IMG/VR virus record: IMGVR_UViG_3300002307_000041
Coordinates: 21,096-85,095 of that record
Length of the DNA stretch: 64,000 nt
Direction: 5' to 3' (one strand)
DNA from: a virus
Taxonomy: Duplodnaviria > Caudoviricetes
Each line of letters opens with the position of its first letter. Positions within the stretch are counted from its first letter, which is position 1. The notes beneath the pieces were generated by a model, which was not told where the DNA came from, made no database searches, and saw only the letters and a program-made list of their open reading frames with translations. The position numbers and the translations under genes were made by a program. Positions 5,906 through 19,345 of this stretch are shown here, piece after piece.

Positions 5906-6302
5906 GTGTTTGATCTTAGGCGATAGTATCGCTGTTGGTACTCATCAATATAAGACTGACTGTGTGAAACTTGCTACAAGTGGATTTAGCTCTCTACAAT
6001 GGAATAGACGCTACAATAACACTATCTTATTCTCACAGCAGTTCAATTTTGTTGTAATTAGCTTAGGATCAAACGACTACGCAGCTATCAATACACGCAA
6101 AGAACTAGAAGAACTTAGGATAAAGATTGATAGCAAGCGTGTCTATTGGATATTGCCTGCTATTAAACCTGAGATACAACAAGTGGTTAGAGAGATAGCA
6201 TCTTTCCACGGTGATCGTATTATTAAGATACCTATTCTAGGAAGAGATGGGATACACCCAACTACTACTGGATACAAAAAAATAGCAGAGGAAGTAAAAT
6301 GA
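5898..6302 (+). CDS. SGNH/GDSL hydrolase-like protein
   Basis: [10 protein letters not shown] block I, SLGSND block III, DGIHP block V. Confidence 0.75.
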
Positions 6303-6901
6303 ATTTAGTACCAATGGTAATCGAAAAAGAATCTGGCGGAGAACGTAGCTATGATATCTTTAGTCGCTTGCTTAAAGACAGGATTATAATGTTAGAAGGA
6401 CCCATCGAAGACCATACAAGTGGACTTATTTGTTCACAGCTATTGTTCTTAGAAAGTCAGAATCCGGCAAAGGATATCTATCTCTATATTAATAGTCCAG
6501 GTGGGGTTATTACTGCTGGTATGGCTATCTATGATACTATGCAGTTTATCAAACCAGATGTTTGCACTATCGTAATGGGGCAGGCGTGTAGCATGGGGTC
6601 ATTTTTAGCGCAAGCAGGTGCAACAGGAAAGCGTTGGTTGCTGCCTAACAGCAGACATATGATCCATCAACCTAGCGGTGGAGCTAGAGGTATGGCTAGT
6701 GATATCGAGATTAGCTATAAAGAAATCCAGTTTTGGAAAAATAGGTTGACAGAATTGTATGTTAAGCATAATACTGTAGGTAAGACTTATGATCACTTTG
6801 TAGCAGATATGGATCGAGATAAGTTTATGAGTGCAAACGAAGCAGTTGCTTATGGTCTAGCAGATAAGGTGATCGAGCGTCGAGACGATCTAGGAGAATA
6901 A
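6299..6901 (+). CDS. clpP: ATP-dependent Clp protease proteolytic subunit
   Basis: [41 protein letters not shown] (Ser), MIHQP (His), DRDKFMSA. Confidence 0.97.
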
Positions 6902-6902
6902 A

Positions 6903-7451
6903 GTGAAAGTTTATATCGGCCGTTATCCAAGTAGTGCAGTTTCTAAACGTAGACCCGATGCTGAACAGGTAAAGCGTATACGCATAGATGCGTGGGATAC
7001 TTGGAATATGGCCGAAACTCTTGCTGAAATAATCTTACCTATGCTAACACAACTGAGAGATACTAAACACGGTAGTCCTGGAGACATACCCGCTTTCTCT
7101 GATGATAGCAATCACCAGTATCCTCAACTGTGTTTTGATTTTTATAAAAAAGATAATAAACTTGCTTGGGATCGTGGACATAAACAATTTGAAGATATCT
7201 TAGACAAAATGATCTGGAGTTTTGAGCAGATCTGCATAGAGGATAGGGATAGCCAGTTTCATAGCGGAACACACGACATTAAATGGGTTCCTGTACTAAA
7301 TGCACAAGGAGCCCCAACTGGAAATTCTAAGATGGTAAAGGGACCTAACGACACTGCAAAATTTGATTCGGTTAGTTATAAGATCTACTACGAAAAGATA
7401 CAAGAGGGGTTAGACCTTTTTGGAAAATATTATATGGGACTTTGGGATTAA
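6903..7451 (+). CDS. Conserved phage hypothetical protein
   Basis: GTG start; DTWNM..TLA.IILPML and EGLDLFGKYY..LWD pattern. Confidence 0.7.
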   Translation: MKVYIGRYPSSAVSKRRPDAEQVKRIRIDAWDTWNMAETLAEIILPMLTQLRDTKHGSPGDIPAFSDDSNHQYPQLCFDFYKKDNKLAWDRGHKQFEDILDKMIWSFEQICIEDRDSQFHSGTHDIKWVPVLNAQGAPTGNSKMVKGPNDTAKFDSVSYKIYYEKIQEGLDLFGKYYMGLWD

Positions 7452-7723
7452 TGATAAAGTTAAAATGGCACGGAGATTTACCAGAAAATCTTTCCGAGAT
7501 CGAGGAAACGGTTATTAAGGATTTAGAAAATATACACGACGACCTTGATGGAGATCCGAGTCCATTAATTTTCCATCACGTATTTTTAGAGAAGAATCAC
7601 AACGGACCATTAGTATTTGTGTGGGGTGAGTCGGGAGATAATGATCAATATCATTGTGAATATGATCCAAATCCAAAATGGGAAAGTATTAATTCACTTG
7701 ACAGCAACGAAGAATTAAGTTAG
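7442..7723 (+). CDS. Hypothetical acidic protein (likely start ATG 7451)
   Basis: ORF coupled to upstream stop. Confidence 0.55.
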   Translation: MGLMIKLKWHGDLPENLSEIEETVIKDLENIHDDLDGDPSPLIFHHVFLEKNHNGPLVFVWGESGDNDQYHCEYDPNPKWESINSLDSNEELS

Positions 7724-7726
7724 TAT
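7698..7726 (+). promoter_or_regulatory. Sigma70-type promoter for first tRNA pair
   Basis: TTGACA-17 nt-TAGTAT directly upstream of tRNA-Gly. Confidence 0.65.
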
Positions 7727-7742
7727 AAGTAATAATAGAGAC

Positions 7743-7816
7743 GCGGGGTTGGCATATGGGTTGTGCATCAGCCTTCCAAGCTGAAGAAAGGAGTTCGAAT
7801 CTCCTACCCCGCTCCA
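7743..7816 (+). tRNA. trnG: tRNA-Gly(TCC)
   Basis: Cloverleaf; anticodon arm TCAGC-CTTCCAA-GCTGA; TTCGAAT T-loop; encoded CCA. Confidence 0.93.
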
Positions 7817-7820
7817 AAGT

Positions 7821-7912
7821 GGTGAGATGGCCGAGAGGCTTAAGGCAACGGTTTGCTAAACCGTCGTACCTAGAAATGGGTACCCAGGGTTCGAATCCCT
7901 GTCTCACCGCCA
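7821..7912 (+). tRNA. trnS: tRNA-Ser(GCT)
   Basis: Long variable arm; ACGGT-TTGCTAA-ACCGT; CCA. Confidence 0.95.
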
Positions 7913-7937
7913 ACACTAAAAAAGTTTAAAATACCAG

Positions 7938-7968
7938 TTGACAAGAATATAAATATAATGTATAAATA
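7938..7968 (+). promoter_or_regulatory. Sigma70 promoter overlapping a TATAAATA late-promoter box
   Basis: TTGACA-17 nt-TATAAA(TA). Confidence 0.7.
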
Positions 7969-7986
7969 AAAGACAATAAGGAATAC

Positions 7987-8073
7987 GTGAGTTCAACAAT
8001 GTCAAAGCATATGAATCAAATTTGCAAATATAACCGTTGGTATGAAGATGCCAGGGGGGTTCTTGTACGTTGA
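7987..8073 (+). CDS. Putative attenuator leader peptide (M)SSTMSKHMNQICKYNRWYEDARGVLVR
   Basis: SD AAGGA at 7978-7982, GTG 7987 with in-frame ATG 7999, TGA 8071-8073; last codons form the 5' arm of a hairpin that competes with the terminator. Confidence 0.5.
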   Translation: MSSTMSKHMNQICKYNRWYEDARGVLVR

Positions 8074-8097
8074 TGTGAGACTCACATTTGTACTTTG

Positions 8098-8129
8098 AAC
8101 CCCGGGTTTAATTACTCCGGGGTTTTTTT
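8098..8129 (+). terminator. Rho-independent terminator (attenuator terminator)
   Basis: AACCCCGG(8098-8105)/CCGGGGTT(8117-8124) stem followed by a T-tract. Confidence 0.85.
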
Positions 8130-8150
8130 ATTGGTAAAGGAGGAAACAAA

Positions 8151-8309
8151 ATGAAGTGGCCTAAATTACTCAATGAAATGTATCAGGCTTGTTTAGCACA
8201 TGATACTATTAAAGAGAAGGAACTGTTTATGAAGGCTTTGAAAAAGAATATCAAAGCCCGTAATAAGCATAAGAAAGTCACAGTACCGCAAGTAACAGTG
8301 CGAGGCTGA
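8151..8309 (+). CDS. Small basic hypothetical protein (52 aa)
   Basis: Strong SD AAGGAGG; MKWPKLLNEMYQACLAHD...VRG*. Confidence 0.65.
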   Translation: MKWPKLLNEMYQACLAHDTIKEKELFMKALKKNIKARNKHKKVTVPQVTVRG

Positions 8310-8314
8310 ACGTA

Positions 8315-8521
8315 TAAACAGGCTGCTGCTCCCTAAGCATAAGAGCAGCCCTCGACCGGTACGTGGATCCAGATGGACGTACAAGTGGTTTCCGGCGAGG
8401 AGTATGTTGGAGGTATTTCTCCACAAACACATCGTGCCAATATGGTACTACCCTGTTATAAAGATACATAGTATCCTAGGGGCTGCTGTTCCGAGGGTGC
8501 GGAATACGGTGTGCTTATGCA
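8315..8521 (+). ncRNA. Unassigned structured ncRNA
   Basis: GC-rich; nested stems GCATAAG/CTTATGC, AGCAGCCC/GGGCTGCT, CCTCG/CGAGG, CCGG/CCGG, GTACGT/ACGTAC, TGGAG/CTCCA, GATAC/GTATC; no plus-strand ORF. Confidence 0.65.
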
Positions 8522-8531
8522 GAAATAATTT

Positions 8532-8608
8532 GGCCGCGTAGCTCAGTTGGTTAGAGTATTAGCCTGTCACGCTAAGGGTCGCCGGTTCGAGCCCGGTCGC
8601 GGTCGCCA
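8532..8608 (+). tRNA. trnD: tRNA-Asp(GTC)
   Basis: TTAGC-CTGTCAC-GCTAA; canonical D and T arms; CCA. Confidence 0.96.
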
Positions 8609-8614
8609 TACAAT

Positions 8615-8688
8615 ATCGGTGTAGTATAATGGTAGTGCAAGGGTCTCCAAAACCCTGAGCGTGGGTTCGATTCCTACCACCGGTGCCA
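8615..8688 (+). tRNA. trnW: tRNA-Trp(CCA)
   Basis: AGGGT-CTCCAAA-ACCCT; CCA. Confidence 0.93.
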
Positions 8689-8694
8689 AATTAA

Positions 8695-8769
8695 TGGCCC
8701 ATAGCTCAGGGGTAGAGCACAGTCCTGATAAGACTGGGGTCGGTGGTTCAATCCCACCTGGGCCAACCA
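8695..8769 (+). tRNA. trnI: tRNA-Ile(GAT)
   Basis: CAGTC-CTGATAA-GACTG; CCA. Confidence 0.95.
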
Positions 8770-8774
8770 TATAT

Positions 8775-8856
8775 GGGCAAATGTGAGGGGAATGGCTAAC
8801 AGCTGGGGCCCGCAAGGGGGCTGTTAGAACGGGTTCAAGTCCCGGTTTGTCCACCA
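8775..8856 (+). ncRNA. Anticodon-less tRNA-like RNA resembling a tmRNA tRNA-like domain (alanine identity)
   Basis: Acceptor GGGCAAA/TTTGTCC with G3.U70, A73 and CCA; T arm CGGG-TTCAAGT-CCCG; stemless D region; 8-bp helix CTAACAGC/GCTGTTAG capped by CCC-GCAA-GGG in place of an anticodon arm. Confidence 0.65.
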
Positions 8857-8860
8857 ATAG

Positions 8861-8937
8861 GCCGGTAGGGCGGTTGCGGCAATCGCGCTAGTCTCATACA
8901 CTAGTCTAAGATGTTTCGAGTACATCTACCGGCACCA
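8861..8937 (+). tRNA. tRNA with CAT anticodon (Met elongator or Ile2/lysidine)
   Basis: GCCGGTA/TACCGGC acceptor; CTAGT-CTCATAC-ACTAG; CCA; unusual T stem GATGT/ACATC. Confidence 0.85.
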
Positions 8938-8939
8938 GA

Positions 8940-8945
8940 TAAATA
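8940..8945 (+). promoter_or_regulatory. T4-like late promoter core TAAATA, 5 nt before ATG 8951
   Basis: GATAAATA-AAATT-ATG; no SD in the spacer. Confidence 0.6.
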
Positions 8946-8950
8946 AAATT

Positions 8951-10027
8951 ATGATAATAAATTCACATTCAACCTCCGGACTTTGTAGCACTTGTTATCG
9001 AGATTTACCGGCACAGATAGAATATAGAGATGACGGCGCAGCATATATAATAAAAACATGTCCAGATCACGGATATGAAGAAGCAATGATTGAAAGATCT
9101 TGGGAATTTTGGAAAGATATGCCGCAGAATAATCCAAATAATAGAACATATGCTGCATATAATATGACAATGATAGAAGTTACTGATCGTTGTAATGTGA
9201 TGTGTGCTCATTGCTATCATATACCTAATAATAAAATAAAAGATCAACCAGTTGATGTAATAGTAAACAAAGCAATACGCCAACAAGCTGGTGCAATATG
9301 TCTTATTGGTGCAGAACCTACAATGCGAGATGATCTTGACGAAATTATTAAGGGAATTATAGCTAAAAAACCACCAATTATTACAACTGTAGGTACAGTT
9401 TCAAATGGTATTAGAATAGCTGATAAAGATTATCTAAAAAAATTAGAAGATGCAGGTCTTTGGGATATGTCAATAAGCATACATAATCCTAAATATCATA
9501 AAGATATGATATGGGAAAAAGTTAATAAGGGGCTAACTAACTTATTAGAAAGTAATATACATTTAGGACAAGTGGGATTTACTGTAGAAAATTATGAAGA
9601 AATAAAATTTGCAGTTGACAAGATATTATGGTTTAAAAATAACGGTTATAATGCAGGGGATTATTGTATAAGATCTCCAGGAGATATCGGTACAATAGTA
9701 AAACCGGAAGATGAAATATTTGCTAGCGATTTAGTCAGAATGATCAGTCAATATGCAGAAGAAAAGAATATTAGTTTTGAAAAACATCCAAATTATGGAA
9801 GTAATCCATATCATGTAGGATATTTGTTAGATGGTATAAGCATACAAGTAATTCATTGGCCCGGAGCTAGAACTGTTGATACTCGATGGATGAATATTGG
9901 TCCTTGGGCTGAATTTATTCCTAATAGCAGAGGATCTTTTGTATTACAAACAATTCTTAGAGACGGCTGGAAAAAAGGATGGTGGCAAGGGCAACAGTTA
10001 TTATCTATCAATGTCGATAAAAATTAA
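8951..10027 (+). CDS. Radical SAM protein (MoaA/COG1964-like) with N-terminal CxxC...CPxHG zinc domain
   Basis: CSTC...KTCPDHG; EVTDRCNVMCAHC (CxxxCxxC); GAEPT; SNGIRI. Confidence 0.88.
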   Translation: MIINSHSTSGLCSTCYRDLPAQIEYRDDGAAYIIKTCPDHGYEEAMIERSWEFWKDMPQNNPNNRTYAAYNMTMIEVTDRCNVMCAHCYHIPNNKIKDQPVDVIVNKAIRQQAGAICLIGAEPTMRDDLDEIIKGIIAKKPPIITTVGTVSNGIRIADKDYLKKLEDAGLWDMSISIHNPKYHKDMIWEKVNKGLTNLLESNIHLGQVGFTVENYEEIKFAVDKILWFKNNGYNAGDYCIRSPGDIGTIVKPEDEIFASDLVRMISQYAEEKNISFEKHPNYGSNPYHVGYLLDGISIQVIHWPGARTVDTRWMNIGPWAEFIPNSRGSFVLQTILRDGWKKGWWQGQQLLSINVDKN

Positions 10028-10777
10028 TGAATTTTGCGATTCTTGTATTTTAGATAACGTATGGTTACTAAGATCTAGTGTTGGAAAAACATATTTTAGA
10101 TATTCTAAATGTTCATTAGGCGTAGGATGCAAATCTGCTACTTTTCCTAACCGATCATGATATAAAATTGGTCTAGATTTTTTAGAATACCAATCGCTAT
10201 TATTGAGTATTTCAAACACTGTAGTTGGTATATCTTTAATATCATTATGATATAATTTTAATAATTCACTATAATCATCATCTACTATAATGTTGTCAAT
10301 AGACAACATTTTATTATTAATTGCTAATTTGGGCAAATTTTGATGTAACTCGCTTTTCATATATAGTGGCAACATTAGAAAAAATCTATAATTTATTTTT
10401 AGATTATCTAAAAAGGATTTAGCTGAGGCAATCAGTGCTAGATCTCTTTTTAGATAAAAGTATTCATCGGCAAACTTTTTAACAAACGAGTCTGGGTATA
10501 CGACACTATTAAAAATAGTTCCTGCGTTTACCCATTCATTGTTAATGAAATGATCTTCTCTAGCAGTATTAGTCCACATTATCATAACAGTATCGTTGCC
10601 GTTTAGATTGTAAGATTTGCAACATTCTATTAGTTTTATAAAAATCTGTAAATTACCACTACCACTGGCACCAAAATTATAAAATTCATTAGCTTCACAA
10701 CCCAAAATATCGGCCCAAGTCATCCATCGATATTGTGTAAAACTACAGCCAAAGGTAAAAAGTCTATCATACATCAT
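10001..10777 (-). CDS. SGNH-like hypothetical protein, convergent with the radical SAM gene
   Basis: FGCSFT, NFGASGSGN, HPTPNEH motifs; minus-strand TAAATA 5 nt before ATG. Confidence 0.7.
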   Translation of the reverse strand: MMYDRLFTFGCSFTQYRWMTWADILGCEANEFYNFGASGSGNLQIFIKLIECCKSYNLNGNDTVMIMWTNTAREDHFINNEWVNAGTIFNSVVYPDSFVKKFADEYFYLKRDLALIASAKSFLDNLKINYRFFLMLPLYMKSELHQNLPKLAINNKMLSIDNIIVDDDYSELLKLYHNDIKDIPTTVFEILNNSDWYSKKSRPILYHDRLGKVADLHPTPNEHLEYLKYVFPTLDLSNHTLSKIQESQNSLIFIDIDR

Positions 10778-10793
10778 TGAATTATTTAGTTTT

Positions 10794-10869
10794 GGACCAT
10801 TAGCTCAGCCGGTAGAGCAGGAGACTCTTAATCTCTTTGTCGCAGGTTCGATCCCTGCATGGTTCACCA
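10794..10869 (+). tRNA. trnK: tRNA-Lys(CTT)
   Basis: GGAGA-CTCTTAA-TCTCT; canonical D and T arms; CCA. Confidence 0.95.
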
Positions 10870-10874
10870 AATAT

Positions 10875-10949
10875 GGAGCGTTCGTCTATCGGTTAGGACA
10901 CTGGCCTTTCACGCCGGTAAGAGGGGTTCGATTCCCCTACGCTCTACCA
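10875..10949 (+). tRNA. trnE: tRNA-Glu(TTC)
   Basis: CTGGC-CTTTCAC-GCCGG; CCA. Confidence 0.95.
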
Positions 10950-10954
10950 AATTT

Positions 10955-11026
10955 GCTCGCATGAACTAAGCGTAAGTTCTCCTGCTCGACGGGAGTATGT
11001 AGGTGCAAGCCCTACTGCGAGCTACA
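10955..11026 (+). ncRNA. Non-canonical tRNA-like cloverleaf (nominal TCG loop)
   Basis: All four stems intact (GCTCGCA/TGCGAGC, GAACT/AGTTC, CTCCT/GGGAG, GTAGG/CCTAC), but no D-loop GG, no U33, T-loop TGCAAGC, 3' end TACA. Confidence 0.6.
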
Positions 11027-11031
11027 AATAC

Positions 11032-11108
11032 GGTCGGGTTCCAGAGCGGCTTATGGCGCGGTCTGCAAAACCGTTGATTCGCGGGTTCAAATCCCGCCCC
11101 GACCTCCA
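11032..11108 (+). tRNA. trnC: tRNA-Cys(GCA), copy 1
   Basis: GCGGT-CTGCAAA-ACCGT; U73; CCA. Confidence 0.93.
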
Positions 11109-11191
11109 AGTTTGCAGTGAAAAGGCCGCGTCGGCTGTACTGACCCTTGTGCCCTATGCTGGCCAGCGTCTAACGGGAGTGATCAAGTAAA

Positions 11192-11419
11192 ATGTGCCAC
11201 TGCGATCCTATAAAATTAGCTGTTGCTAAAAAGATAAACAAGAAGATAGTCATCGTCGACGATGATAAAGTAATATATAGTATGCCGTTTTGGGTTAAAA
11301 TAAAACAGAGGAAAGATATAGAAGATCTCGCAGATAGTTTTAACAAAGCAAAGAAAAGATGCATCGACTCTATCATAGAGTTTGAAACAAAATTTAGCCC
11401 TCGTAGCTCAATTGGATAG
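11192..11419 (+). CDS. Small hypothetical protein whose stop codon lies inside tRNA-Arg(TCG)
   Basis: 75-aa ORF with phage-like codon use; last 23 nt overlap the tRNA 5' end. Confidence 0.5.
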   Translation: MCHCDPIKLAVAKKINKKIVIVDDDKVIYSMPFWVKIKQRKDIEDLADSFNKAKKRCIDSIIEFETKFSPRSSIG

Positions 11420-11473
11420 AGTTGCGGTCTTCGAAACCGATGGTTGGGAGTTCGAGTCTCTCCGAGGGCGCCA
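11397..11473 (+). tRNA. trnR: tRNA-Arg(TCG)
   Basis: GCCCTCG/CGAGGGC; GCGGT-CTTCGAA-ACCGA; CCA. Confidence 0.92.
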
Positions 11474-11478
11474 TAAAT

Positions 11479-11552
11479 GCTGTCTTGGTGTAATGGAAGC
11501 ACGGGAGTTTGTGGAACTCTTAGCACTGGATCGATACCAGTAGACAGTACCA
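11479..11552 (+). tRNA. trnH: tRNA-His(GTG) lacking G-1, with A73
   Basis: GGAGT-TTGTGGA-ACTCT; preceded by T, discriminator A; CCA. Confidence 0.9.
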
Positions 11553-11561
11553 AAATAATCG

Positions 11562-11589
11562 TTGACAATATCTACAAAGATGCTATTAT
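11562..11589 (+). promoter_or_regulatory. Sigma70-type promoter
   Basis: TTGACA-16 nt-TATTAT with TGC upstream of the -10. Confidence 0.6.
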
Positions 11590-11623
11590 ATAGTTGTTGT
11601 TAAAGACAGGGTGGTCACTTAAT

Positions 11624-11755
11624 AGACTCGGAGATAGCTACTGTTAGCTATCTAAGCAATGCGGTAATGCTTTGAAAATTCCGCTGGTGGAGGTGCATAT
11701 ACACCGTATATGCTCCCGGGTTTGCAAATTGTCCCTCATCAACTTGCACGAGTTT
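11624..11755 (+). ncRNA. Unassigned multi-hairpin ncRNA directly upstream of tRNA-Tyr
   Basis: Closing stem AGACTCG/CGAGTTT; hairpins AGATAGCT/AGCTATCT, AAGCA/TGCTT, GCATATA/TATATGC, TGCAA/TTGCA. Confidence 0.6.
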
Positions 11756-11756
11756 T

Positions 11757-11844
11757 GGGAGAGCGGCTCAGATGGCGGATGGGCACCGGACTGTAAATCC
11801 GGCACATAGATACGCAGTTGGTTCGAATCCAACCTCTCCCACCA
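11757..11844 (+). tRNA. trnY: tRNA-Tyr(GTA)
   Basis: CCGGA-CTGTAAA-TCCGG; long variable arm; CCA. Confidence 0.94.
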
Positions 11845-11846
11845 AG

Positions 11847-11974
11847 TTTAGATCCGTGTGTCTTGGTTGGACTACACTTTAAGTCGGTAGTTTACATAGT
11901 AAACGAAAAGCTGCTGGGAAACCTGATAAATGCCTATCCAACGGCTGTGCAGCGAAAAGAGGCTAGGATCTAAA
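11847..11974 (+). ncRNA. Unassigned structured ncRNA between tRNA-Tyr and tRNA-Met
   Basis: 9-bp closing stem TTTAGATCC/GGATCTAAA; GTTGGA/TCCAAC; CTAC/GTAG; GTTTAC/GTAAAC; GCTGC/GCAGC; GG-GAAA-CC. Confidence 0.6.
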
Positions 11975-11982
11975 GAGTTTAT

Positions 11983-12057
11983 TGCGGGGTGGAGCATTGG
12001 TAGCTCGCTAGCCTCATAAGCTAGAGGTAGGGTGTTCGATTCACTCCCCCGCTTCCA
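11983..12057 (+). tRNA. trnM: tRNA-Met(CAT), initiator-like
   Basis: GCGGGGTGGAGC start as in tRNA-fMet, 1:72 mismatch (T.T); CTAGC-CTCATAA-GCTAG lacks the full three G-C pairs; CCA. Confidence 0.88.
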
Positions 12058-12062
12058 AACGT

Positions 12063-12139
12063 GGTCAGGTTCCAGAGCGGCTTATGGCGCGGTCTGCAAA
12101 ACCGTTGATTCGCGGGTTCGAATCCCGCCCTGACCTCCA
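12063..12139 (+). tRNA. trnC: tRNA-Cys(GCA), copy 2
   Basis: Near-identical to 11032-11108, with a compensated acceptor pair. Confidence 0.93.
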
Positions 12140-12202
12140 AAATAATAGATTCTAATGGTAGAGTGATAAATAATTATGTAAATTATAGAAAGACTCTACC
12201 AA

Positions 12203-12646
12203 ATGAATTACAAGGGCACTAAAGATAAAAAGTTTATTTGTAAAAATTGTAATAATGAATTTCCGTTTAAGGGATATAGTTCTAATCACATATATTGTTC
12301 TTTAGAATGTTCAAAAGAATTTGTTAATACAAATAAAAATAGAGTGAATGAACAACGATTTGAAGATTGGTTATCTGGTAAACCATTAGGAGTTAAGAAT
12401 TCAAGACCAATTATAAAAGAATTTGTTATCCGAAGAGATGGTTATAAATGTTCTAGTTGTGGAATAGATAGTTATAATGGAAAAGAAATTACATTATGGC
12501 TCGATCATATTGATGGTAATGCTGCTAATAATAGACCAAATAATTTTAGACTGATTTGCCCAAATTGCGACAGTCAATCGGATACATTTGGTGCTAAGAA
12601 TTATGGTAAAGGAAGAAAATCTAGAGGATTGCCACAATATGGCTAA
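12203..12646 (+). CDS. HNH endonuclease with N-terminal zinc finger
   Basis: CKNC...CSLEC; CSSC...DHIDGNAANNRPNNFRLICPNCDSQ. Confidence 0.88.
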   Translation: MNYKGTKDKKFICKNCNNEFPFKGYSSNHIYCSLECSKEFVNTNKNRVNEQRFEDWLSGKPLGVKNSRPIIKEFVIRRDGYKCSSCGIDSYNGKEITLWLDHIDGNAANNRPNNFRLICPNCDSQSDTFGAKNYGKGRKSRGLPQYG

Positions 12647-12703
12647 CTATGTAGTTGACAATATTATAAAAGTATTATAATATGTAGAAGTAATGAGAAA
12701 TGA

Positions 12704-12780
12704 TCCGGGACGGTCACAAGGTGGGACAGCAGACTGTTAATCTGTTCATCAGGAAGGTTCGATTCCTTCTCCCGGAGCCA
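12704..12780 (+). tRNA. trnN: tRNA-Asn(GTT)
   Basis: TCCGGGA/TCCCGGA; GCAGA-CTGTTAA-TCTGT; CCA. Confidence 0.92.
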
Positions 12781-12785
12781 TAATT

Positions 12786-12875
12786 GGAGAGGTGGGAGAG
12801 TGGTTTAATCCGCCAGTCTTGAAAACTGGAGAGCCTGCAAGGGCTCCGTGGGTTCGAATCCCACCCCCTCCGCCA
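12786..12875 (+). tRNA. trnS: tRNA-Ser(TGA)
   Basis: CCAGT-CTTGAAA-ACTGG; long variable arm; CCA. Confidence 0.96.
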
Positions 12876-12879
12876 AATT

Positions 12880-12956
12880 GGTTACGTAGCTCATCAGGAT
12901 AGAGCACAGGTTTCCTAAACCTGGGGTAGAAGGTTCGAGTCCTTCCGTGACCGCCA
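12880..12956 (+). tRNA. trnR: tRNA-Arg(CCT)
   Basis: CAGGT-TTCCTAA-ACCTG; CCA. Confidence 0.95.
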
Positions 12957-12967
12957 ACTAAAAATAT

Positions 12968-12996
12968 TTGACAGCATAAGTAAATGCTGTTATTAT
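12968..12996 (+). promoter_or_regulatory. Sigma70-type promoter with a palindrome in the spacer
   Basis: TTGACA-17 nt-TATTAT; ACAGCAT/ATGCTGT inverted repeat spans the promoter. Confidence 0.65.
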
Positions 12997-13005
12997 ATAG
13001 ATAAT

Positions 13006-13088
13006 GCGCTTGTGGTGAAACGGTAGACACGCTAGTCTTAGGAACTAGTCTCAAAAGGGTGGGGGTTCAAGTCCCTCCAAGCGCACCA
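13006..13088 (+). tRNA. trnL: tRNA-Leu(TAG)
   Basis: CTAGT-CTTAGGA-ACTAG; variable arm; CCA. Confidence 0.95.
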
Positions 13089-13096
13089 TATGTTAT

Positions 13097-13171
13097 GCCG
13101 CTGTAGCCGAATGGTAAGGCAGCACATTAGTAATGTGAAGATTGGGAGTTCGATTCTCTCCAGCGGCACCA
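13097..13171 (+). tRNA. trnT: tRNA-Thr(AGT), rare A34 anticodon
   Basis: GCCGCTG/CAGCGGC (C2-G71, A73); anticodon loop TT-AGT-AA; CCA. Confidence 0.85.
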
Positions 13172-13217
13172 TAATTTTAATAGATAGAGCTAAATAAAAC
13201 TATTAGGAGCTCTATAA

Positions 13218-13622
13218 ATGAAAACGTATATATGTCAACAATGCGGAACAGAACATAAACATAGGGGTATAAACTTCTCTAACAAATATTGTAATAATAA
13301 ATGCCAACAAGAATATCAATATGAGAATCGCATAAAACAATGGTTAGAAGAAGGAAGTGATTGGAAGATTCAAGCTCCAAATTGGGTTAAACGATATCTT
13401 TCTGAACAACGAGGATATCACTGTGAAGTCTGTGAAATTACAGAACATAATGGCAAACCTATAGGATTAGAATGCGATCATATAGATGGTAATCCTAATA
13501 ATAATAAACCAGAGAATTTAAGATTGATTTGTCCAAATTGCCATTCGCAAACTAAATCATTTAAGGGCGCTAATAGAGGTAATGGTAGACAGAAAAGATA
13601 TCATAAAGATTTGATTGATTAA
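13218..13622 (+). CDS. HNH endonuclease with N-terminal zinc finger (paralog of 12203-12646)
   Basis: CQQC...CNNKC; CEVC...DHIDGNPNNNKPENLRLICPNCHSQT; SD AGGAG. Confidence 0.9.
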   Translation: MKTYICQQCGTEHKHRGINFSNKYCNNKCQQEYQYENRIKQWLEEGSDWKIQAPNWVKRYLSEQRGYHCEVCEITEHNGKPIGLECDHIDGNPNNNKPENLRLICPNCHSQTKSFKGANRGNGRQKRYHKDLID

Positions 13623-13637
13623 AAAAATCAATCAACC

Positions 13638-13785
13638 ATTCTTGTTTTGTCGATCCCTACTAGGCTGCGGAAGCATAGCTAGGTTTAGTAGAGTAGAAAC
13701 GAGCGTATGCTGAAGTACGTCAGCGTTCAGTAGGCTACATGATGTGAAGGTGGCAGCTACGAACTTAGCTAAAGGGGCTGAGAAC
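13638..13785 (+). ncRNA. Possible structured ncRNA downstream of the HNH gene
   Basis: GC-enriched non-coding block: CTACT/AGTAG, GC-GGAA-GC, GCTGA/TCAGC, CCCT/AGGG. Confidence 0.4.
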
Positions 13786-13798
13786 CTCATGTTATTAG

Positions 13799-13827
13799 TT
13801 GACAGATCATAAAAAGTGTCGTATAAT
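13799..13827 (+). promoter_or_regulatory. Consensus sigma70 promoter
   Basis: TTGACA-17 nt-TATAAT. Confidence 0.88.
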
Positions 13828-13849
13828 ATAAAAAATGAGGAAAACACAA

Positions 13850-14062
13850 ATGGCTAAGAAAACGATTTCAAAAGTTAGTGATAAACTTGATAAAGTGAAC
13901 GAAAGCTTCACTGTTAATATGTACGACAACGGTTATATGTTTGAAATTAACGGATCAGTTGGTCCAGACGACGACTGGAAAACTGTTAAACTAATGGTTA
14001 TTGGTCTAGATGATCTAATTTCGCTGATCAAAGAAGTTAGCGATATGCCTAAACGAGACTAA
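13850..14062 (+). CDS. Small hypothetical protein
   Basis: SD GAGGA before ATG 13850; MAKKTISKVSDKL... Confidence 0.7.
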   Translation: MAKKTISKVSDKLDKVNESFTVNMYDNGYMFEINGSVGPDDDWKTVKLMVIGLDDLISLIKEVSDMPKRD

Positions 14063-14091
14063 CACACAGGCCCTAAGCTAGGGTCTGTTAT

Positions 14092-14167
14092 GGACCCATA
14101 GCTCAATAGGTTAGAGCATCCGACTTTTAATCGGGTGATCCGGGTTCGAGTCCCGGTGGGTCTACCA
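14092..14167 (+). tRNA. trnK: tRNA-Lys(TTT)
   Basis: CCGA-CTTTTAA-TCGG; canonical arms; CCA. Confidence 0.94.
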
Positions 14168-14183
14168 ATCAATAGGATTTAAT

Positions 14184-14345
14184 ATGGTTGAGGTTGATTT
14201 AACAAAAGTACAACTAACTTGGTGCTTAGACATCTTATCTAGGATTAAAAATATATTAGATTCCAAAGGATGGACAGAAGATCAAAAACTAGTCAGCATT
14301 GACTGGTTAGTAAAGCAAGCACTCAAAGCTGAACGAGAAGATTAA
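14184..14345 (+). CDS. Small hypothetical protein (53 aa)
   Basis: SD AGGA; MVEVDLTKVQLTWCLDILSRIK...ERED*. Confidence 0.55.
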   Translation: MVEVDLTKVQLTWCLDILSRIKNILDSKGWTEDQKLVSIDWLVKQALKAERED

Positions 14346-14375
14346 ATATAATACATACGTATTTACTGATTCCGG

Positions 14376-14611
14376 AGTTGGTAAATTACGCTGGCGGACC
14401 TACAATAAACTAATCCGCCTCGGCTGTCGGCGAAACGTAGGATGGGCTGTCGACACGGGGTTTAGCAGCACCTGACACAAAAAAGCTGTGTTCGACCGTC
14501 TAGCGTAGCTAGACCAACTGAGGGGGTTGATAGTAGACCTGCCTTGTGGGGAGATGTTGGCCCGAGTCTTCATCCAAACCATGCTACGGGAGTGATCCTA
14601 TCGGGCCTCCA
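14376..14611 (+). ncRNA. Unassigned structured ncRNA ending in an acceptor-like minihelix with UCCA
   Basis: AGTTGGT/ACCAACT, TACGCTGG/CTAGCGTA, GGCGGA/TCCGCC, GTCGA/TCGAC; then GGCCCGA(14559)/TCGGGCC-T-CCA(14611). Confidence 0.6.
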
Positions 14612-14625
14612 TTTTGGAGTAAAAA

Positions 14626-14790
14626 ATGGCTAGAAGTTTCTGGGGGAAAGCAGGTAATATTAACCTGCGTGGGAAAAAGTCTTTGAGATTGCGTTGTCGC
14701 TGTTGTGTCTGTCAAGACCTAAGAGGACGCATTGAAAAGATGCGTATACAGCGTGAAATTAAGGAAATGATAGAAGCTATTGGGGAATAG
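14626..14790 (+). CDS. Small basic Cys-rich protein (CRCCVC); stop codon lies inside tRNA-Gln(CTG)
   Basis: SD GGAG; 54-aa ORF MARSFWGK...IEAIGE*. Confidence 0.55.
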   Translation: MARSFWGKAGNINLRGKKSLRLRCRCCVCQDLRGRIEKMRIQREIKEMIEAIGE

Positions 14791-14856
14791 TTCAGTTGGT
14801 AGAACGCCAGATTCTGATTCTGGATGTCCGTGGTTCGAATCCATGTTCCCCAGCCA
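14781..14856 (+). tRNA. trnQ: tRNA-Gln(CTG)
   Basis: TGGGGAA/TTCCCCA; CCAGA-TTCTGAT-TCTGG; CCA. Confidence 0.94.
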
Positions 14857-14865
14857 ATATTGTAT

Positions 14866-14939
14866 TGGGGTGTCGTCTAATGGTAGGACGCAGGATTTTG
14901 ATTCCTGCTATCGTGGTTCGAGTCCATGCACCCCAGCCA
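14866..14939 (+). tRNA. trnQ: tRNA-Gln(TTG)
   Basis: TGGGGTG/CACCCCA; CAGGA-TTTTGAT-TCCTG; CCA. Confidence 0.94.
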
Positions 14940-14953
14940 ATACTAAATATACG

Positions 14954-15499
14954 ATGAGACAATTTATAGATATATTTGAAACTAAAAGAGAAGATATAAC
15001 GCTAGAGAAACTACCTTACAAAGTAGACGACCTGGCTCCTATTCTCAGCGGCGATAATGTAGACTATCACTATCACGTATTAAGCAAAGGATATGTGGAC
15101 CGCTACAATAACGGCGAAGGCGATCCTGCATTTAACCTCGGAGGGGCTAAACTACATAATATGTGGTGGGCGCAACTGCACCCTAGAGAAGGATTAAACA
15201 ATCCGTCGGGTGCCATAAAAGATTTCATAGAGAAGAACTACGCTAGTATGGGCGGCTTCATAGAAGCTATGACTGAGACTGCTAAAAGCATACAGGGCAG
15301 TGGATGGGTGTACCTAGCAAAAAGCGGCGACATAAAAACAACACCAAATCAAAGTTTTAAAACAGATATCATATTACCTATAGATATGTGGGAGCATAGT
15401 TGGGCAGACTATACTCCGTCTAAGAACGCCAAAAAAGACTATATTAGATCGATAATGAAGATAATTAATTATGATATCATCAACGAGAGGTTGAGATAA
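14954..15499 (+). CDS. sod: Fe/Mn superoxide dismutase family protein
   Basis: LPY..DDLAP, YHY...GYV..YN, LHNMWW, GSGWVYL, IDMWEHSW; the upstream part of the track ORF is tRNA sequence. Confidence 0.9.
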   Translation: MRQFIDIFETKREDITLEKLPYKVDDLAPILSGDNVDYHYHVLSKGYVDRYNNGEGDPAFNLGGAKLHNMWWAQLHPREGLNNPSGAIKDFIEKNYASMGGFIEAMTETAKSIQGSGWVYLAKSGDIKTTPNQSFKTDIILPIDMWEHSWADYTPSKNAKKDYIRSIMKIINYDIINERLR

Positions 15500-15574
15500 G
15501 CGGATGTAGCTCAGTGGTAGAGCTTCTGCTTGCCAAGCAGAAGGTCGTGGGTTCGACCCCCATCGTCCGCTCCA
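15500..15574 (+). tRNA. trnG: tRNA-Gly(GCC)
   Basis: CTGC-TTGCCAA-GCAG; canonical arms; starts immediately after the SOD stop. Confidence 0.96.
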
Positions 15575-15652
15575 TTTTTTTAAATATAACTTGACAGAAA
15601 GCTATAAGATATTATACTAGTACTTGTAATAACAAACAAAGGAGAGATTGTT

Positions 15653-16831
15653 ATGTTAAGTCTTCAAGTACAAGCACCTAGCTGTTATGCTGATATCGTC
15701 AATAGGCAATTCGATAAGTCTGAAAGTCAGTATATCGACCTACAGGCCAGACTAAATTCTGCTTTGCAGGAACCTTGGAAGAAAACTATCCTAAAAAATT
15801 CTATAAAGAATTTTAGGAATAACAATCCCCATATCAAAAAGTGGAACGATATCACTCTCTGTAAAACACTTACTACTACACTTTCAAAAATTGATATTGA
15901 TATTACCCTACAGAGACTTTTAGATCTAGGACACGCTTGTAATATTTTGTCTAGCTTTAAACAAATCGTAGTTATGCCAATCTGTGTATATGAAGATCCT
16001 GCTAATCCAGGAAAATATATCTGTTGGGATGGTCAACATACAGCTATTGTTTTGACTATTATAGCTTCTATGATTTTGGCTGAAGATTTAGATAAGTGTG
16101 AAGTTCCTATTGTAGTATATTCTAGCAACTTAAAGTCCGATATGCGTCAATGCTTTATCGAACTTAACGGCGAAGGTAAGAAGCCGCTAGATCATATCGA
16201 TCAAGTACATCAAAAACTATTCGGAGTACGTACAGATGGTAGCAAAAACGCCGAATGGCAGCTTATTGATAAGAAATACCGTATGTTAGAAGATTATAAG
16301 ATTTTCTTAACAAATGAGAAATTTGGAGATACCCATTCTCCTGGTGCGCAGGCTAGGTTAGATGAGTTTTTAGATAAAAGCTATCCTCCAGTTATTACTG
16401 AATATTTTGCAAAGTATTTCTTTAATATTTGTCATAGCAGTAGACCAGTTCAACCTAAAGAAAGCTGGATGATGTATGAATTCTTTGATTGGTGTCGTGT
16501 ATCTAAGATCGAAGTTACTGATGATTATATCTACGACATTGCCCAAAGTTTGAAAAAGGCTTTTAATGGTGATTTTGATTCGAGTAAACTTTACACAAAG
16601 GCAAAGTTTAGTTATCAAGAATGGTATCGGGCCAATAAACCTTATCAAGATGGCACACTTTGGGGTATACAATATCCTGAATTTAAAATTGGTCTTACAT
16701 TCTTAATGGCACAAATTGCTAAGAACTTTAAAGGACCGATGCCATCATATAAGCCATTATGGAATGTTCCCGACGAAGATCTATTTTCAAATGATTCAGA
16801 TAGTATCAGTATGAAAAAGGAATATGTTTAA
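15653..16831 (+). CDS. ParB/Srx-like (DGQH motif) domain protein
   Basis: IDITLQR...ICVY...YICWDGQHT...FIELN; SD AGGAGA; upstream TTGACA promoter at 15591. Confidence 0.65.
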   Translation: MLSLQVQAPSCYADIVNRQFDKSESQYIDLQARLNSALQEPWKKTILKNSIKNFRNNNPHIKKWNDITLCKTLTTTLSKIDIDITLQRLLDLGHACNILSSFKQIVVMPICVYEDPANPGKYICWDGQHTAIVLTIIASMILAEDLDKCEVPIVVYSSNLKSDMRQCFIELNGEGKKPLDHIDQVHQKLFGVRTDGSKNAEWQLIDKKYRMLEDYKIFLTNEKFGDTHSPGAQARLDEFLDKSYPPVITEYFAKYFFNICHSSRPVQPKESWMMYEFFDWCRVSKIEVTDDYIYDIAQSLKKAFNGDFDSSKLYTKAKFSYQEWYRANKPYQDGTLWGIQYPEFKIGLTFLMAQIAKNFKGPMPSYKPLWNVPDEDLFSNDSDSISMKKEYV

Positions 16832-17307
16832 TGTTAAATGAGGTACTTTCGAAAAATAATCTTAAACTTAAGAAATTATCTCATTTACGAAAACAAATAG
16901 AAGAAGGACATAAATGTACCTTAAAATTTTGTGACGAGGCGTTATCAGAATATGAAGGTCCTAGATCTAATTATCTCTGTATTGATCACCAATTAATGCA
17001 GAGAGAATATGGTGGATTAGCTCGTTACGATCGCCCATGGACTTTTTCTCGAGAATGGAACTGTGCTTGGTGCGGATATAATCCAAAAGAAGATCCTTGG
17101 TTTAAAAATCCACCAATTCCTTTTGATAACGAAGCACATATGATACGTGCTCAACGCGGAATGCTTGTAGGTGATCATAACAAGCATCGTAGAGTTGATG
17201 GTGGAAGTGATGGTAAAGATAATGTTCAAACTTTATGCCAAAATTGTAATTCTAAAAAAACAATTATGACACACGACTATAGAAGATCAAAAATAGAATG
17301 TGTCTAG
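16831..17307 (+). CDS. HNH endonuclease-like protein, translationally coupled to the DGQH gene
   Basis: CAWC...GDH...GGSDGKDNVQTLCQNCNSKK; TAATG overlap. Confidence 0.8.
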   Translation: MLNEVLSKNNLKLKKLSHLRKQIEEGHKCTLKFCDEALSEYEGPRSNYLCIDHQLMQREYGGLARYDRPWTFSREWNCAWCGYNPKEDPWFKNPPIPFDNEAHMIRAQRGMLVGDHNKHRRVDGGSDGKDNVQTLCQNCNSKKTIMTHDYRRSKIECV

Positions 17308-17410
17308 ATATAAACTTATATTTTAATAAAAAAAATAAGAACTAAATAAAAAACTGGCCACTGTTAAGTAACAGTGGATCAGTAATTTATATTGCATAGC
17401 AAAAAAAAGC

Positions 17411-17441
17411 TTGACGTAGGTCATACTTTGCTGTATAAATA
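17411..17441 (+). promoter_or_regulatory. Sigma70 promoter with embedded TATAAATA late box
   Basis: TTGACG-17 nt-TATAAA(TA), preceded by a hairpin at 17353-17383. Confidence 0.65.
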
Positions 17442-17466
17442 TAAAGTAACTAAAAAGGAGAAAGTT

Positions 17467-18042
17467 ATGAAGAACATACTAGCAAATCTGTTGGCATCGG
17501 TTGCAATGCTTGGAACCGCTGTAGCAGCAGATCTACCTAGCAAGGCCGCTCCGGCAGCTCCGGCTCCGGCAGTGTCAAATGCATTTGGTCTTGAAGGGTT
17601 TTATGTCGGTGGTAACGTAGGTGGTAATTATGCCAAGTACGATCACATCAACGTAAATTCAATGCCATATACTATTGGCGCAGTGGGCGGTTATGAATGG
17701 AATCGTTACTTCCGCACTGAAGCTACCTTTGATTATACATCGAAGAACGCACCAACTACCAAGGACACAGGCGAGACTGTTTTCGCTAATGCTGTAATGC
17801 AGTATCCAGTTGGTTTTGGCTTTACACCATATGCACTTGCTGGCGTTGGAGAGGGATTCAACGCCTGGGGTAAGGTAAAGAGTGGCGATGCTCGTACACT
17901 ATATAATATCGGTGGAGGCGTCCGTTATTCACTTAGCAAGAACTTTGAACTAGATGGACGTTATCGTTACATCAACGCTGTTAGCGGTACTAAGTTCGAG
18001 AACAACAGTGTTGTTACAATAGGTGCAAACTACAAGTTCTGA
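17467..18042 (+). CDS. Outer-membrane beta-barrel protein (Omp25/RopB-like porin family)
   Basis: Signal peptide, ADLPSKAAPAAPAP leader, GFYVGGNVG, alternating beta-strands, C-terminal GANYKF; SD AAGGAG. Confidence 0.85.
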   Translation: MKNILANLLASVAMLGTAVAADLPSKAAPAAPAPAVSNAFGLEGFYVGGNVGGNYAKYDHINVNSMPYTIGAVGGYEWNRYFRTEATFDYTSKNAPTTKDTGETVFANAVMQYPVGFGFTPYALAGVGEGFNAWGKVKSGDARTLYNIGGGVRYSLSKNFELDGRYRYINAVSGTKFENNSVVTIGANYKF

Positions 18043-18065
18043 TCTCAATAGGATAGAACTAACAG

Positions 18066-18094
18066 AGATAACGGGCTAGTCCCGTTATCTTTTT
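18066..18094 (+). terminator. Rho-independent terminator
   Basis: AGATAACGGG/CCCGTTATCT stem plus T-tract. Confidence 0.85.
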
Positions 18095-18230
18095 CGTTGA
18101 CAACAACGAAAATACATAGTAATATATAATTACTAAAACAAGATGGGTGGCTAGCTCAAAGGTCGAGCGTTGCGACGAGAAGCCGATACTCTCAACATCC
18201 GTTACTTTAACAAAAGAAAAGGAAAGACAC

Positions 18231-18887
18231 ATGAAGAAGATCATTATCAGCGCAGTATCATTACTAGCTCTAACCGCAGCCGCAGGTGCTACGGATTTAC
18301 CTTCTAAGAAGAAGACTCCAGCTGCTCCTGCTCCAGTAGCAGCACCAGTTGCTGCTCCGGCAGAAAGCAATGACAGTTTGTCAATTAGTTATGGACAGGA
18401 TTTTAGTCCAAATAGCTATAATTCAAAGACAGACGATGCTTACACTATTGCTTACACACATAAGCTAGGAGGTGGGTTTACTGTAGGTGGCGTTATGCAG
18501 CCAGTACAGTATTCATCAGACAATACTATGAAGATGACTGGTGAAGGCCAGTTTGGTTATTCATTGCCATCAATGGCAGGTCTTACATTAGGTGGTAAGG
18601 TCGGTTTAGGTGAGAAGTTCCAGTCAAGTGGTAACTTTGGTTATTATGCGCTCTATGGCACTGCTGATTATAAGGTAGCAGATAAGCTAACTTGGAATGC
18701 TGTACAGTATCGTTATCGTAATGCATTTGATACTGCTAATAACTTCGAAAGTCACCAGGTTGGTACTGGTGTTACATATGCTCTAACAGATACCTATGCT
18801 ATCAATGCAAAGGTTTTCCGTAACTATGATAATAACTTCAGCGCAACAGGCGACGGCGCTGCAATTGGCGTAACTGCTAAGTTCTAA
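18231..18887 (+). CDS. Second outer-membrane beta-barrel protein
   Basis: Signal peptide, TDLPSKKKTPAAPAP leader, beta-strand pattern, C-terminal GVTAKF; SD AAGGA. Confidence 0.8.
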   Translation: MKKIIISAVSLLALTAAAGATDLPSKKKTPAAPAPVAAPVAAPAESNDSLSISYGQDFSPNSYNSKTDDAYTIAYTHKLGGGFTVGGVMQPVQYSSDNTMKMTGEGQFGYSLPSMAGLTLGGKVGLGEKFQSSGNFGYYALYGTADYKVADKLTWNAVQYRYRNAFDTANNFESHQVGTGVTYALTDTYAINAKVFRNYDNNFSATGDGAAIGVTAKF

Positions 18888-18893
18888 TAATTT

Positions 18894-18934
18894 AAAAGGT
18901 GGAGAGATAATTAATTTTTTTTCCACCTTTTTCT
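18894..18934 (+). terminator. Terminator-like inverted repeat
   Basis: AAAAGGTGGA/TCCACCTTTT plus T-tract. Confidence 0.65.
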
Positions 18935-18976
18935 TTGACTAATTACTAACAGTGTAGTATTATTAGTAAATAAGAG

Positions 18977-19051
18977 GGGCGGTTGGCACAGTGGTAGCGC
19001 ATCTCGTTTACACCGAGAGGGTCGGGGGTTCGAAACCCTCACCGCCCACCA
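18977..19051 (+). tRNA. trnV: tRNA-Val(TAC)
   Basis: GGGCGGT/ACCGCCC; TCTCG-TTTACAC-CGAGA; CCA. Confidence 0.94.
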
Positions 19052-19073
19052 TATTTTTTGCAAGGGATGAAAA

Positions 19074-19307
19074 ATGAAGAAGACTATTTTACTAATGACT
19101 GCACTAGCATTTGCTACTGTTATGTCTCTATCTACAGTTACTACAGCATCTGCTGCAGAAGCTACTCGTAAAGTTTGCCATATCAAGAAGGGCAAGGAAA
19201 TTTGTAAGGAACTTAAGGTACGTCCAAAAAGCGAACCTTTAAAGAAACCGGATGTCAAAAAGCCGGCGGTCAAAAAGACTGTTAAGAAGAAGAAAATTAG
19301 TAATTAA
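19074..19307 (+). CDS. Small secreted Lys-rich protein
   Basis: Signal peptide ending ASA-A; Cys pair; basic tail. Confidence 0.7.
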   Translation: MKKTILLMTALAFATVMSLSTVTTASAAEATRKVCHIKKGKEICKELKVRPKSEPLKKPDVKKPAVKKTVKKKKISN

Positions 19308-19309
19308 CT

Positions 19310-19340
19310 AAAATGGGGGCATTTAGCCCCCATTTTTTTT
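19310..19340. terminator. Bidirectional terminator
   Basis: AAAATGGGGGC/GCCCCCATTTT between convergent genes. Confidence 0.85.
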
Positions 19341-19345
19341 GACTA

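Follow-up and report, generated by a model that had tools for sequence, protein, structure and literature searches.

In the trp and his operons, attenuation rests on a race between the ribosome and RNA polymerase, on a pause hairpin, and on alternative hairpins of similar stability (PMC1183508). The leader described here precedes an array of tRNA and small-RNA genes in the DNA of an uncultured phage, and it resembles the E. coli trp and Salmonella his leaders in several respects (PMC1183508). It has a promoter-proximal short ORF, a hairpin within that ORF where a pause hairpin would be expected, and exclusive antiterminator and terminator hairpins that share one strand, have similar stabilities, and are placed so that a ribosome at the end of the ORF would favor the terminator. 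Trp/his-type geometry had been claimed for this DNA in a preliminary description, and three structural elements of such attenuators are in place: a leader ORF, a pair of alternative hairpins, and a suitably positioned stop codon. Unlike the trp and his leaders, however, the phage leader contains no tandem codons for a single amino acid. It also lacks a hairpin of the I:II type, so that no super-attenuation is expected when it is left untranslated. Furthermore, its antiterminator takes the 5' strand from within the ORF, not from beyond the stop codon, and the genes downstream specify tRNAs and a structured RNA rather than biosynthetic enzymes.

Other described systems share particular features with this locus. 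Antibiotic-responsive leader ORFs ahead of ABC-F and efflux genes in Firmicutes report general inhibition of translation. Like them, the phage leader is a short ORF without an amino-acid run, in which a stall anywhere upstream would favor the antiterminator, so that it would report translation speed. Whereas those leaders respond to drugs and control resistance genes, the output of the phage element is decoding machinery, and its leader codons match its own tRNA products. At pyrBI and pyrE, a ribosome close behind the polymerase physically blocks the terminator hairpin. There, as proposed here, termination is set by how closely the ribosome trails RNA polymerase, but the polarity is opposite: the phage stop codon lies 21-25 nt upstream of the terminator arm, and a close ribosome would free the terminator. 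The weaker antiterminator and an output tied to tRNA supply recall T-box leaders. Unlike a T-box, the phage leader has no Rfam T-box match, specifier loop, or T-box bulge, is only about 150 nt long, and contains an ORF.

Known cases of leader-peptide attenuation concern amino-acid operons, nucleotide operons, and some resistance genes. To our knowledge, the mechanism has not been described for tRNA genes, and we know of no leader-peptide feedback loop acting directly on tRNA genes in cells or viruses. In our literature search, neither a leader-peptide attenuator ahead of phage tRNA genes nor any other phage example came to light. The type of attenuator is known, and its placement before phage tRNA genes would be new. 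On balance, and with modest confidence, we lean toward reading this locus as a functional transcription attenuator, coupled to the ribosome, that heads the phage tRNA and small-RNA array. Below, we set out the evidence for this reading and for the alternatives to it. Positions refer to the window, the whole 64,000-nucleotide stretch of phage DNA that was analyzed, and the features are collected in the table.

A conserved leader reading frame

We assembled 22 distinct variants of the leader element, representing seven leader-peptide classes (A-G), from IMG/VR and freshwater metagenome contigs after removing duplicates. The first relatives, on two contigs, were reached through the 52-aa protein encoded downstream. 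Further IMG/VR relatives were found with DNA patterns covering either the -10 box and 5' UTR or the region from ORF to terminator. In metagenomes, the UTR pattern matched 26 loci, 21 of them true relatives. Because this pattern covers only the -10 box and 5' UTR and omits the -35 box, the ORF, and the hairpins, the conservation of those three parts is an independent observation. Using the upstream 93-aa ORF as an anchor yielded no relatives, and every locus retrieved through the downstream structured RNA was one in which the leader had already been recognized. Within the phage's own 85-kb record, a covariance model of the leader found a single copy. Similar pairs of leader and hairpins in related phages, which the preliminary description had proposed to look for ahead of tRNA clusters, are represented by the variants. 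Judged from its recurrence in these distinct sequences with covarying stems, the arrangement is more than chance.

Features of the leader and of the genes behind it (positions in the window)
Feature	Position	Strand	Details
Sigma-70-type promoter	7938..7968	+	-35 TTGACA 7938-7943; 17-nt spacer; TG-extended -10 TATAAA(TA) 7961-7968
Short 5' UTR with purine-rich ribosome-binding region	7973..7998	+	AAGGAA 7978-7983; GAG 7-9 nt before ATG
Leader ORF, 24 codons, ends TGA	7999..8073	+	ATG 7999; TGA 8071-8073; Trp-Tyr-Glu-Asp block at codons 14-17
Hairpin P0 inside ORF	8037..8054	+	7 bp, GAAG loop; ends 1 nt before antiterminator; candidate RNA-polymerase pause hairpin
Antiterminator hairpin	8056..8103	+	Basal stem 8056-8062/8097-8103; middle 8065-8069/8089-8093; inner 8072-8078/8082-8088; stop codon inside
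Intrinsic terminator	8097..8129	+	Stem 8097-8105/8117-8125; 11-nt loop; seven T 8123-8129; 5' arm is the antiterminator 3' arm
52-aa Lys-rich ORF, first downstream gene	8151..8309	+	Strong Shine-Dalgarno; no promoter between terminator and ORF
Conserved structured RNA	8319..8403 (up to ~8521)	+	5 pairs with compensatory changes, two helices
First tRNA block	8532..8937	+	Asp, Trp, Ile, tRNA-like RNA, Met

A promoter had been predicted at 7938-7966, and it is present, with the TATAAA hexamer at 7961-7966. All 22 variants carry TTGACA or TTGACG at the same 17-nt spacing, and the spacer sequence itself is variable. As a recurrent phage promoter box, TGTATAAATA occurs twice in the window against 0.67 copies expected, which is not significant. 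The ribosome-binding boxes of the relatives are AAGG, AGG, or GAG, 7-9 nt ahead of the ATG; in class B, AAGGAA stands at 5 nt. Indels of 1 nt and 10 nt among the variants are located in the UTR, and none of these falls inside the ORF. The class B ATG is shifted 10 nt toward the promoter, yet the leader still has 24 codons. A 3-nt insertion in class E falls inside the leader frame.

The Shine-Dalgarno sequence and leader ORF claimed at 7987/7999-8073 are also present. The frame opened by the ATG has 24 codons, and an in-frame GTG at 7987 would extend it to 28. As a general start codon, this GTG was ruled out, since it is missing from classes B, C, E, and G. An ATG-to-TGA frame of 23-25 codons is found in 22 of 22 variants. 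Across the variants' leader frames we counted no stop codons in frame, whereas the two alternative frames contain 23 and 50. From the ATG to a conserved Trp lie 11-13 codons that are only 47-69% identical between classes, near the level of unrelated AT-rich sequence, and the frame is nevertheless always open. When this variable part is shuffled, it stays open with a probability of 0.27-0.47 per class, and the product over the seven classes is 9e-4. We infer that the leader is translated.

The C-terminal half of the peptide is conserved, with the pattern Cys/Arg-Trp-Tyr-Glu-Asp-Ala/Thr ... Gly-Val/Leu-Leu. Its Trp, 10 residues before the last codon, is invariant, and its Asp, at 7 residues, is almost invariant. 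The conserved core coincides with hairpin P0. In one variant (L026), the peptide reads Trp-His-Lys-Asp, yet a 6-bp P0 hairpin is retained. Because L026 alters the peptide and keeps the hairpin, at least part of the C-terminal conservation appears to act at the RNA level. Since the Trp-Tyr-Glu-Asp block overlies P0, constraints on peptide and on RNA are, in these alignments, inseparable there.

A conserved peptide could in principle be the sensor itself. In an arrest mechanism of the TnaC or SecM kind, a small molecule would stall the ribosome on the nascent peptide and lock in termination. The invariant Trp and nearly invariant Asp at fixed distances from the last codon would suit this explanation, as would a stop codon that is always TGA and a length of 23-25 codons, near that of TnaC. 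However, the conserved block lies over P0, and L026 replaces Tyr-Glu with His-Lys while keeping the hairpin. The last residue of the leader is Arg, Asp, Met, or Trp depending on the variant, unlike the fixed Pro of TnaC and SecM. Moreover, no arrest should be needed for a ribosome at the stop codon to favor termination. We consider a nascent-peptide sensor very improbable.

Alternative hairpins at the end of the leader

P0 was absent from the preliminary description and was found here. Among the variants, 93% of its alignment cells are paired, and one of its pairs appears as UA, UG, and CG. It lies 0-2 nt ahead of the antiterminator in the variants, without overlapping it, and could serve as the site at which RNA polymerase pauses.

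The pairing of GGGGTTC (8056-8062) with GAACCCC (8097-8103), together with its inner stems, is present as had been described. Folded alone, the resulting long hairpin has an energy of -25.1 kcal/mol (z -3.8 against shuffled sequence), and the terminator alone has -17.2 kcal/mol (z -3.0). In each of the 22 variants, folding with the terminator 3' arm blocked gives P0 and one long hairpin, whereas without this constraint P0 and the inner hairpin fold together with the terminator. In the window, the claim of two mutually exclusive hairpins holds for the basal 7 bp only; the inner hairpin coexists with the terminator in the minimum-energy fold. Every variant shares 5-9 nt of the terminator 5' arm with the antiterminator 3' arm, and in all of them the antiterminator and terminator states lie 0-5 kcal/mol apart. 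The terminator is GC-rich and is followed by a U-run of 5-7 in all variants. The geometry relative to the ORF is also fixed. In all variants, the antiterminator 5' arm, which had been placed in the last leader codons, begins 12-16 nt ahead of the stop codon; the shared segment follows this codon at a distance of 21-25 nt.

Aligning the whole leader with MAFFT and RNAalifold recovered only P0 and three terminator pairs, the hairpins being misaligned, and we therefore relied on per-sequence folding and covariance-model alignments. In an alignment fitted to the terminator, 94.6% of cells are paired and 18 pairs covary; none of 500 shuffles was as good, and slid controls reached 35-49%. The terminator helix itself is 97.5% paired with 4 covarying pairs. 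In an alignment fitted to the antiterminator, 94.1% of cells are paired and 16 pairs covary, again with none of 500 shuffles as good. The middle and inner antiterminator stems show covariation at all 12 pairs.

The basal stem, on which the competition depends, scores differently in the two alignments. Fitted to the antiterminator, it is 94.8% paired with 2 covarying pairs; fitted to the terminator, it is 81.8% paired with no covariation, because classes D and F have a one-column register shift. When each sequence is folded separately, the basal stem is paired in every variant. Differences between the classes are coordinated: the order of its U-A and C-G pairs is swapped between class A and classes D and F, and one more G-C pair is present in class G. 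Where class C has G in place of A in the shared strand, the terminator carries a compensating change, and the antiterminator accommodates the G in a wobble pair. As far as these comparisons go, the basal stem is supported largely by conserved G-C pairs and by register-shifted pairing.

In the innermost stem (8075-8078/8083-8086), a GUGA/UCAC core is invariant in all variants while neighboring pairs covary. The UGA of this core is the leader stop codon in four classes. The core may be a recognition element, and it enters into a second alternative, factor-dependent antitermination, in which a phage or host protein or RNA would stabilize the long hairpin in the manner of BglG/LicT or a T-box, the ORF being incidental or serving only to tune the response. 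In systems that need a stabilizing factor, the antiterminator is less stable than the terminator, and the same holds for the two states here. On the other hand, a search of window positions 7000-20000 against Rfam at E values up to 1 returned no family besides tRNAs, T-box included, and the conserved open frame and stop placement are left unexplained. We regard control by a dedicated factor as quite improbable.

What can be said about the switch itself comes from folding calculations. For free RNA at equilibrium, partition functions give the terminator an occupancy of 0.80-0.98, and masking a ribosome footprint changes this value little. The antiterminator is the minimum-energy fold until the terminator 3' arm has been transcribed. 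Because equilibrium favors the terminator with or without a modeled ribosome, any switch must be kinetic. In the trp leader, too, the terminator is the more stable fold, and kinetic control is accepted. Our estimate of the barrier to direct-path refolding from antiterminator to terminator is only 3.4-4.5 kcal/mol, and with a barrier this low the antiterminator may only delay the terminator or make it leaky. The variants that we folded contain no protector hairpin of the trp kind to sequester the antiterminator in an untranslated leader; an untranslated element should therefore read through rather than super-attenuate.

Under the attenuator reading that we favor, host RNA polymerase would start at the sigma-70-type promoter and a ribosome would load on the 24-codon leader. 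Once transcribed, the antiterminator would form and hold 7 of the 9 nt of the terminator 5' arm. A ribosome that keeps up with the polymerase and stands on the last codons or the stop would cover the antiterminator 5' arm, which starts 15 nt before the stop. With its stop codon in the A site, such a ribosome would cover about 15 nt on either side of the P site and would not reach the terminator. The shared segment would then be free, the terminator would form, and transcription would end at about 8129. If instead the ribosome falls behind within the first ~16 codons, or none has loaded, the antiterminator arm would stay free. We infer that the antiterminator would then persist as a kinetic trap, letting the polymerase continue through to the 52-aa gene, and on to the structured RNA and tRNAs.

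As a test of the attenuator claim in the preliminary description, the variants give a divided result. The open frame, the hairpin overlap, and the placement of the stop codon are conserved, as the claim predicts, but the protector hairpin is missing and equilibrium favors the terminator at 80-98%. The latter values suit another explanation, in which nothing is sensed. A constitutively leaky terminator would close a stand-alone small gene for a 24-residue peptide or a riboregulator, and the upstream hairpin would only set a fixed read-through fraction or stabilize the 3' end. Dominance of the terminator at equilibrium whatever the ribosome position, and the low refolding barrier, are what such a gene would show. 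With about 155 nt from promoter to terminator, the unit is also shaped like a small-RNA gene, and the conserved C-terminal half would fit a functional peptide. However, the N-terminal half is conserved in length and openness only, not in sequence, and the conserved block of the peptide lies over an RNA hairpin. A leaky terminator also gives no role to the fixed position of the stop codon within a competing hairpin. Together with the downstream evidence given below, these points lead us to consider a passive, leaky terminator unlikely.

Genes behind the terminator and codons of the leader

In the window, the U-run is followed by 21 nt, the 52-aa gene with its strong Shine-Dalgarno sequence, the structured RNA, and then the tRNAs, and we saw no promoter-like site between the terminator and tRNA-Asp. 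In the structured RNA, the 5' hairpin and the closing stem both show compensatory changes; this RNA has no Rfam match. Every IMG/VR copy of it sits behind a leader, and in eight variants it starts only 2-3 nt after the terminator U-run, so that its transcription there requires the polymerase to read through the terminator. Because a conserved RNA gene stands behind the U-run without room for a promoter of its own, the arrangement argues that the terminator is conditional or leaky. Among the relatives, the first downstream tRNAs are often Asp, Glu, or Trp. In the window, a tRNA-like RNA that ARAGORN did not call lies between tRNA-Ile and tRNA-Met (8775-8856).

Relatives differ in whether they carry the 52-aa ORF between the terminator and the structured RNA, and the ORF is absent at L007:2819-2822 and from L015, L009, and L033. 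No PHROG family was found for it. That the first downstream gene often encodes a small basic protein would suit factor-dependent antitermination, but the 52-aa gene is missing from many variants that keep the element.

Class F forms an exception to this dependence on read-through. Directly after its terminator, a new promoter (TTGACA-17-TATATT/TATAGT) drives tRNA-Glu (L011:12380-12447 on the minus strand, L028:4467-4510, L031, and L037), giving a layout of tandem sigma-70-type promoters with the attenuator between them. Because this promoter directly follows the terminator, the class F leader is not the exclusive gate of its tRNAs. The proposal that the leader gates a tRNA/ncRNA operon gains support from the eight variants in which the RNA gene adjoins the U-run and is qualified by class F. 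The class F promoter also favors the leaky-terminator explanation, whereas the conserved downstream genes without a promoter of their own in most variants weigh against it.

If the leader senses translation, the question is what slows the ribosome. As the preliminary description had noted for this leader, there is no run of a single amino acid, and none occurs in any class. Inspection by eye found no enrichment of NAN codons or of a single amino acid beyond that of AT-rich coding sequence. We then compared leader codons with the tRNAs that the phages themselves encode. Using the tRNA set of each contig and simple wobble rules, in a comparison designed after the data had been seen and among classes that share ancestry, we found that phage tRNAs read 42 of the 49 codons from codon 2 to the one before the Trp in four classes, against a background of 0.51-0.65 in ORFs and 0.47-0.69 in composition-matched shuffles. 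With a lineage-wide set of 28 anticodons, 77 of 83 upstream leader codons in seven classes are phage-read, where ORFs give 0.79 and shuffles 0.75. Phage tRNAs also read all four codons of the Trp-Tyr-Glu-Asp block. Only 32 of the 49 tail codons, which are constrained by RNA structure, are read in this way. A ribosome stalled on these codons could not free the antiterminator arm, since the two overlap. An enrichment of phage-tRNA codons upstream but not downstream is given no role by a leaky terminator.

This match between codons and tRNAs lends moderate support to sensing of tRNA supply. The feedback sensor that had been postulated for this locus thereby gains some backing, from the enrichment among the upstream codons (77/83). 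The involvement of host anticodon nucleases, which had been suggested as well, found no support. For the ribosome-coupled attenuator, the most likely signal would be the capacity to decode the first ~16 codons, almost all of which are phage-tRNA-read, resulting in negative feedback on the tRNA array. On this tentative and rather doubtful extension of our reading, the phage would measure its own decoding capacity, raising transcription of the array when phage tRNAs are in short supply, as might occur early in infection or following loss of host tRNAs, and turning it off once they are plentiful. If the element works as proposed, large phages would sense translation itself in order to regulate the tRNA sets that they have imported, with a compact and portable sensor of decoding speed. 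Because it combines a host-type promoter with an intrinsic terminator, the element could be tested in a laboratory bacterium even though phage and host are uncultured.

The phage and its setting

The sequencing runs containing this stretch are DNA runs from freshwater and lake metagenomes; no RNA run was among those listed. A blastn comparison of window positions 7700-9000 with isolate phage records returned tRNA matches only and no close cultured relative. Judged by one protein, the phage groups distantly with the PA5oct-like jumbo myoviruses of Proteobacteria. There are 24 tRNA genes in the window, which also encodes phage structural proteins, ClpP, and a Clp-type ATPase. The last two are a ClpP-like protease (6299-6901) and a 735-aa ATPase (49821-52028; phrog_4871, E 7e-255), both phage-encoded. 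CheckV rates the 85-kb IMG/VR virus record that contains the window as 23% complete, which suggests a full genome of several hundred kb. One relative (L021) lies on contig Ga0208257_1000001, which at 352,510 bp is probably a near-complete genome of this phage lineage.
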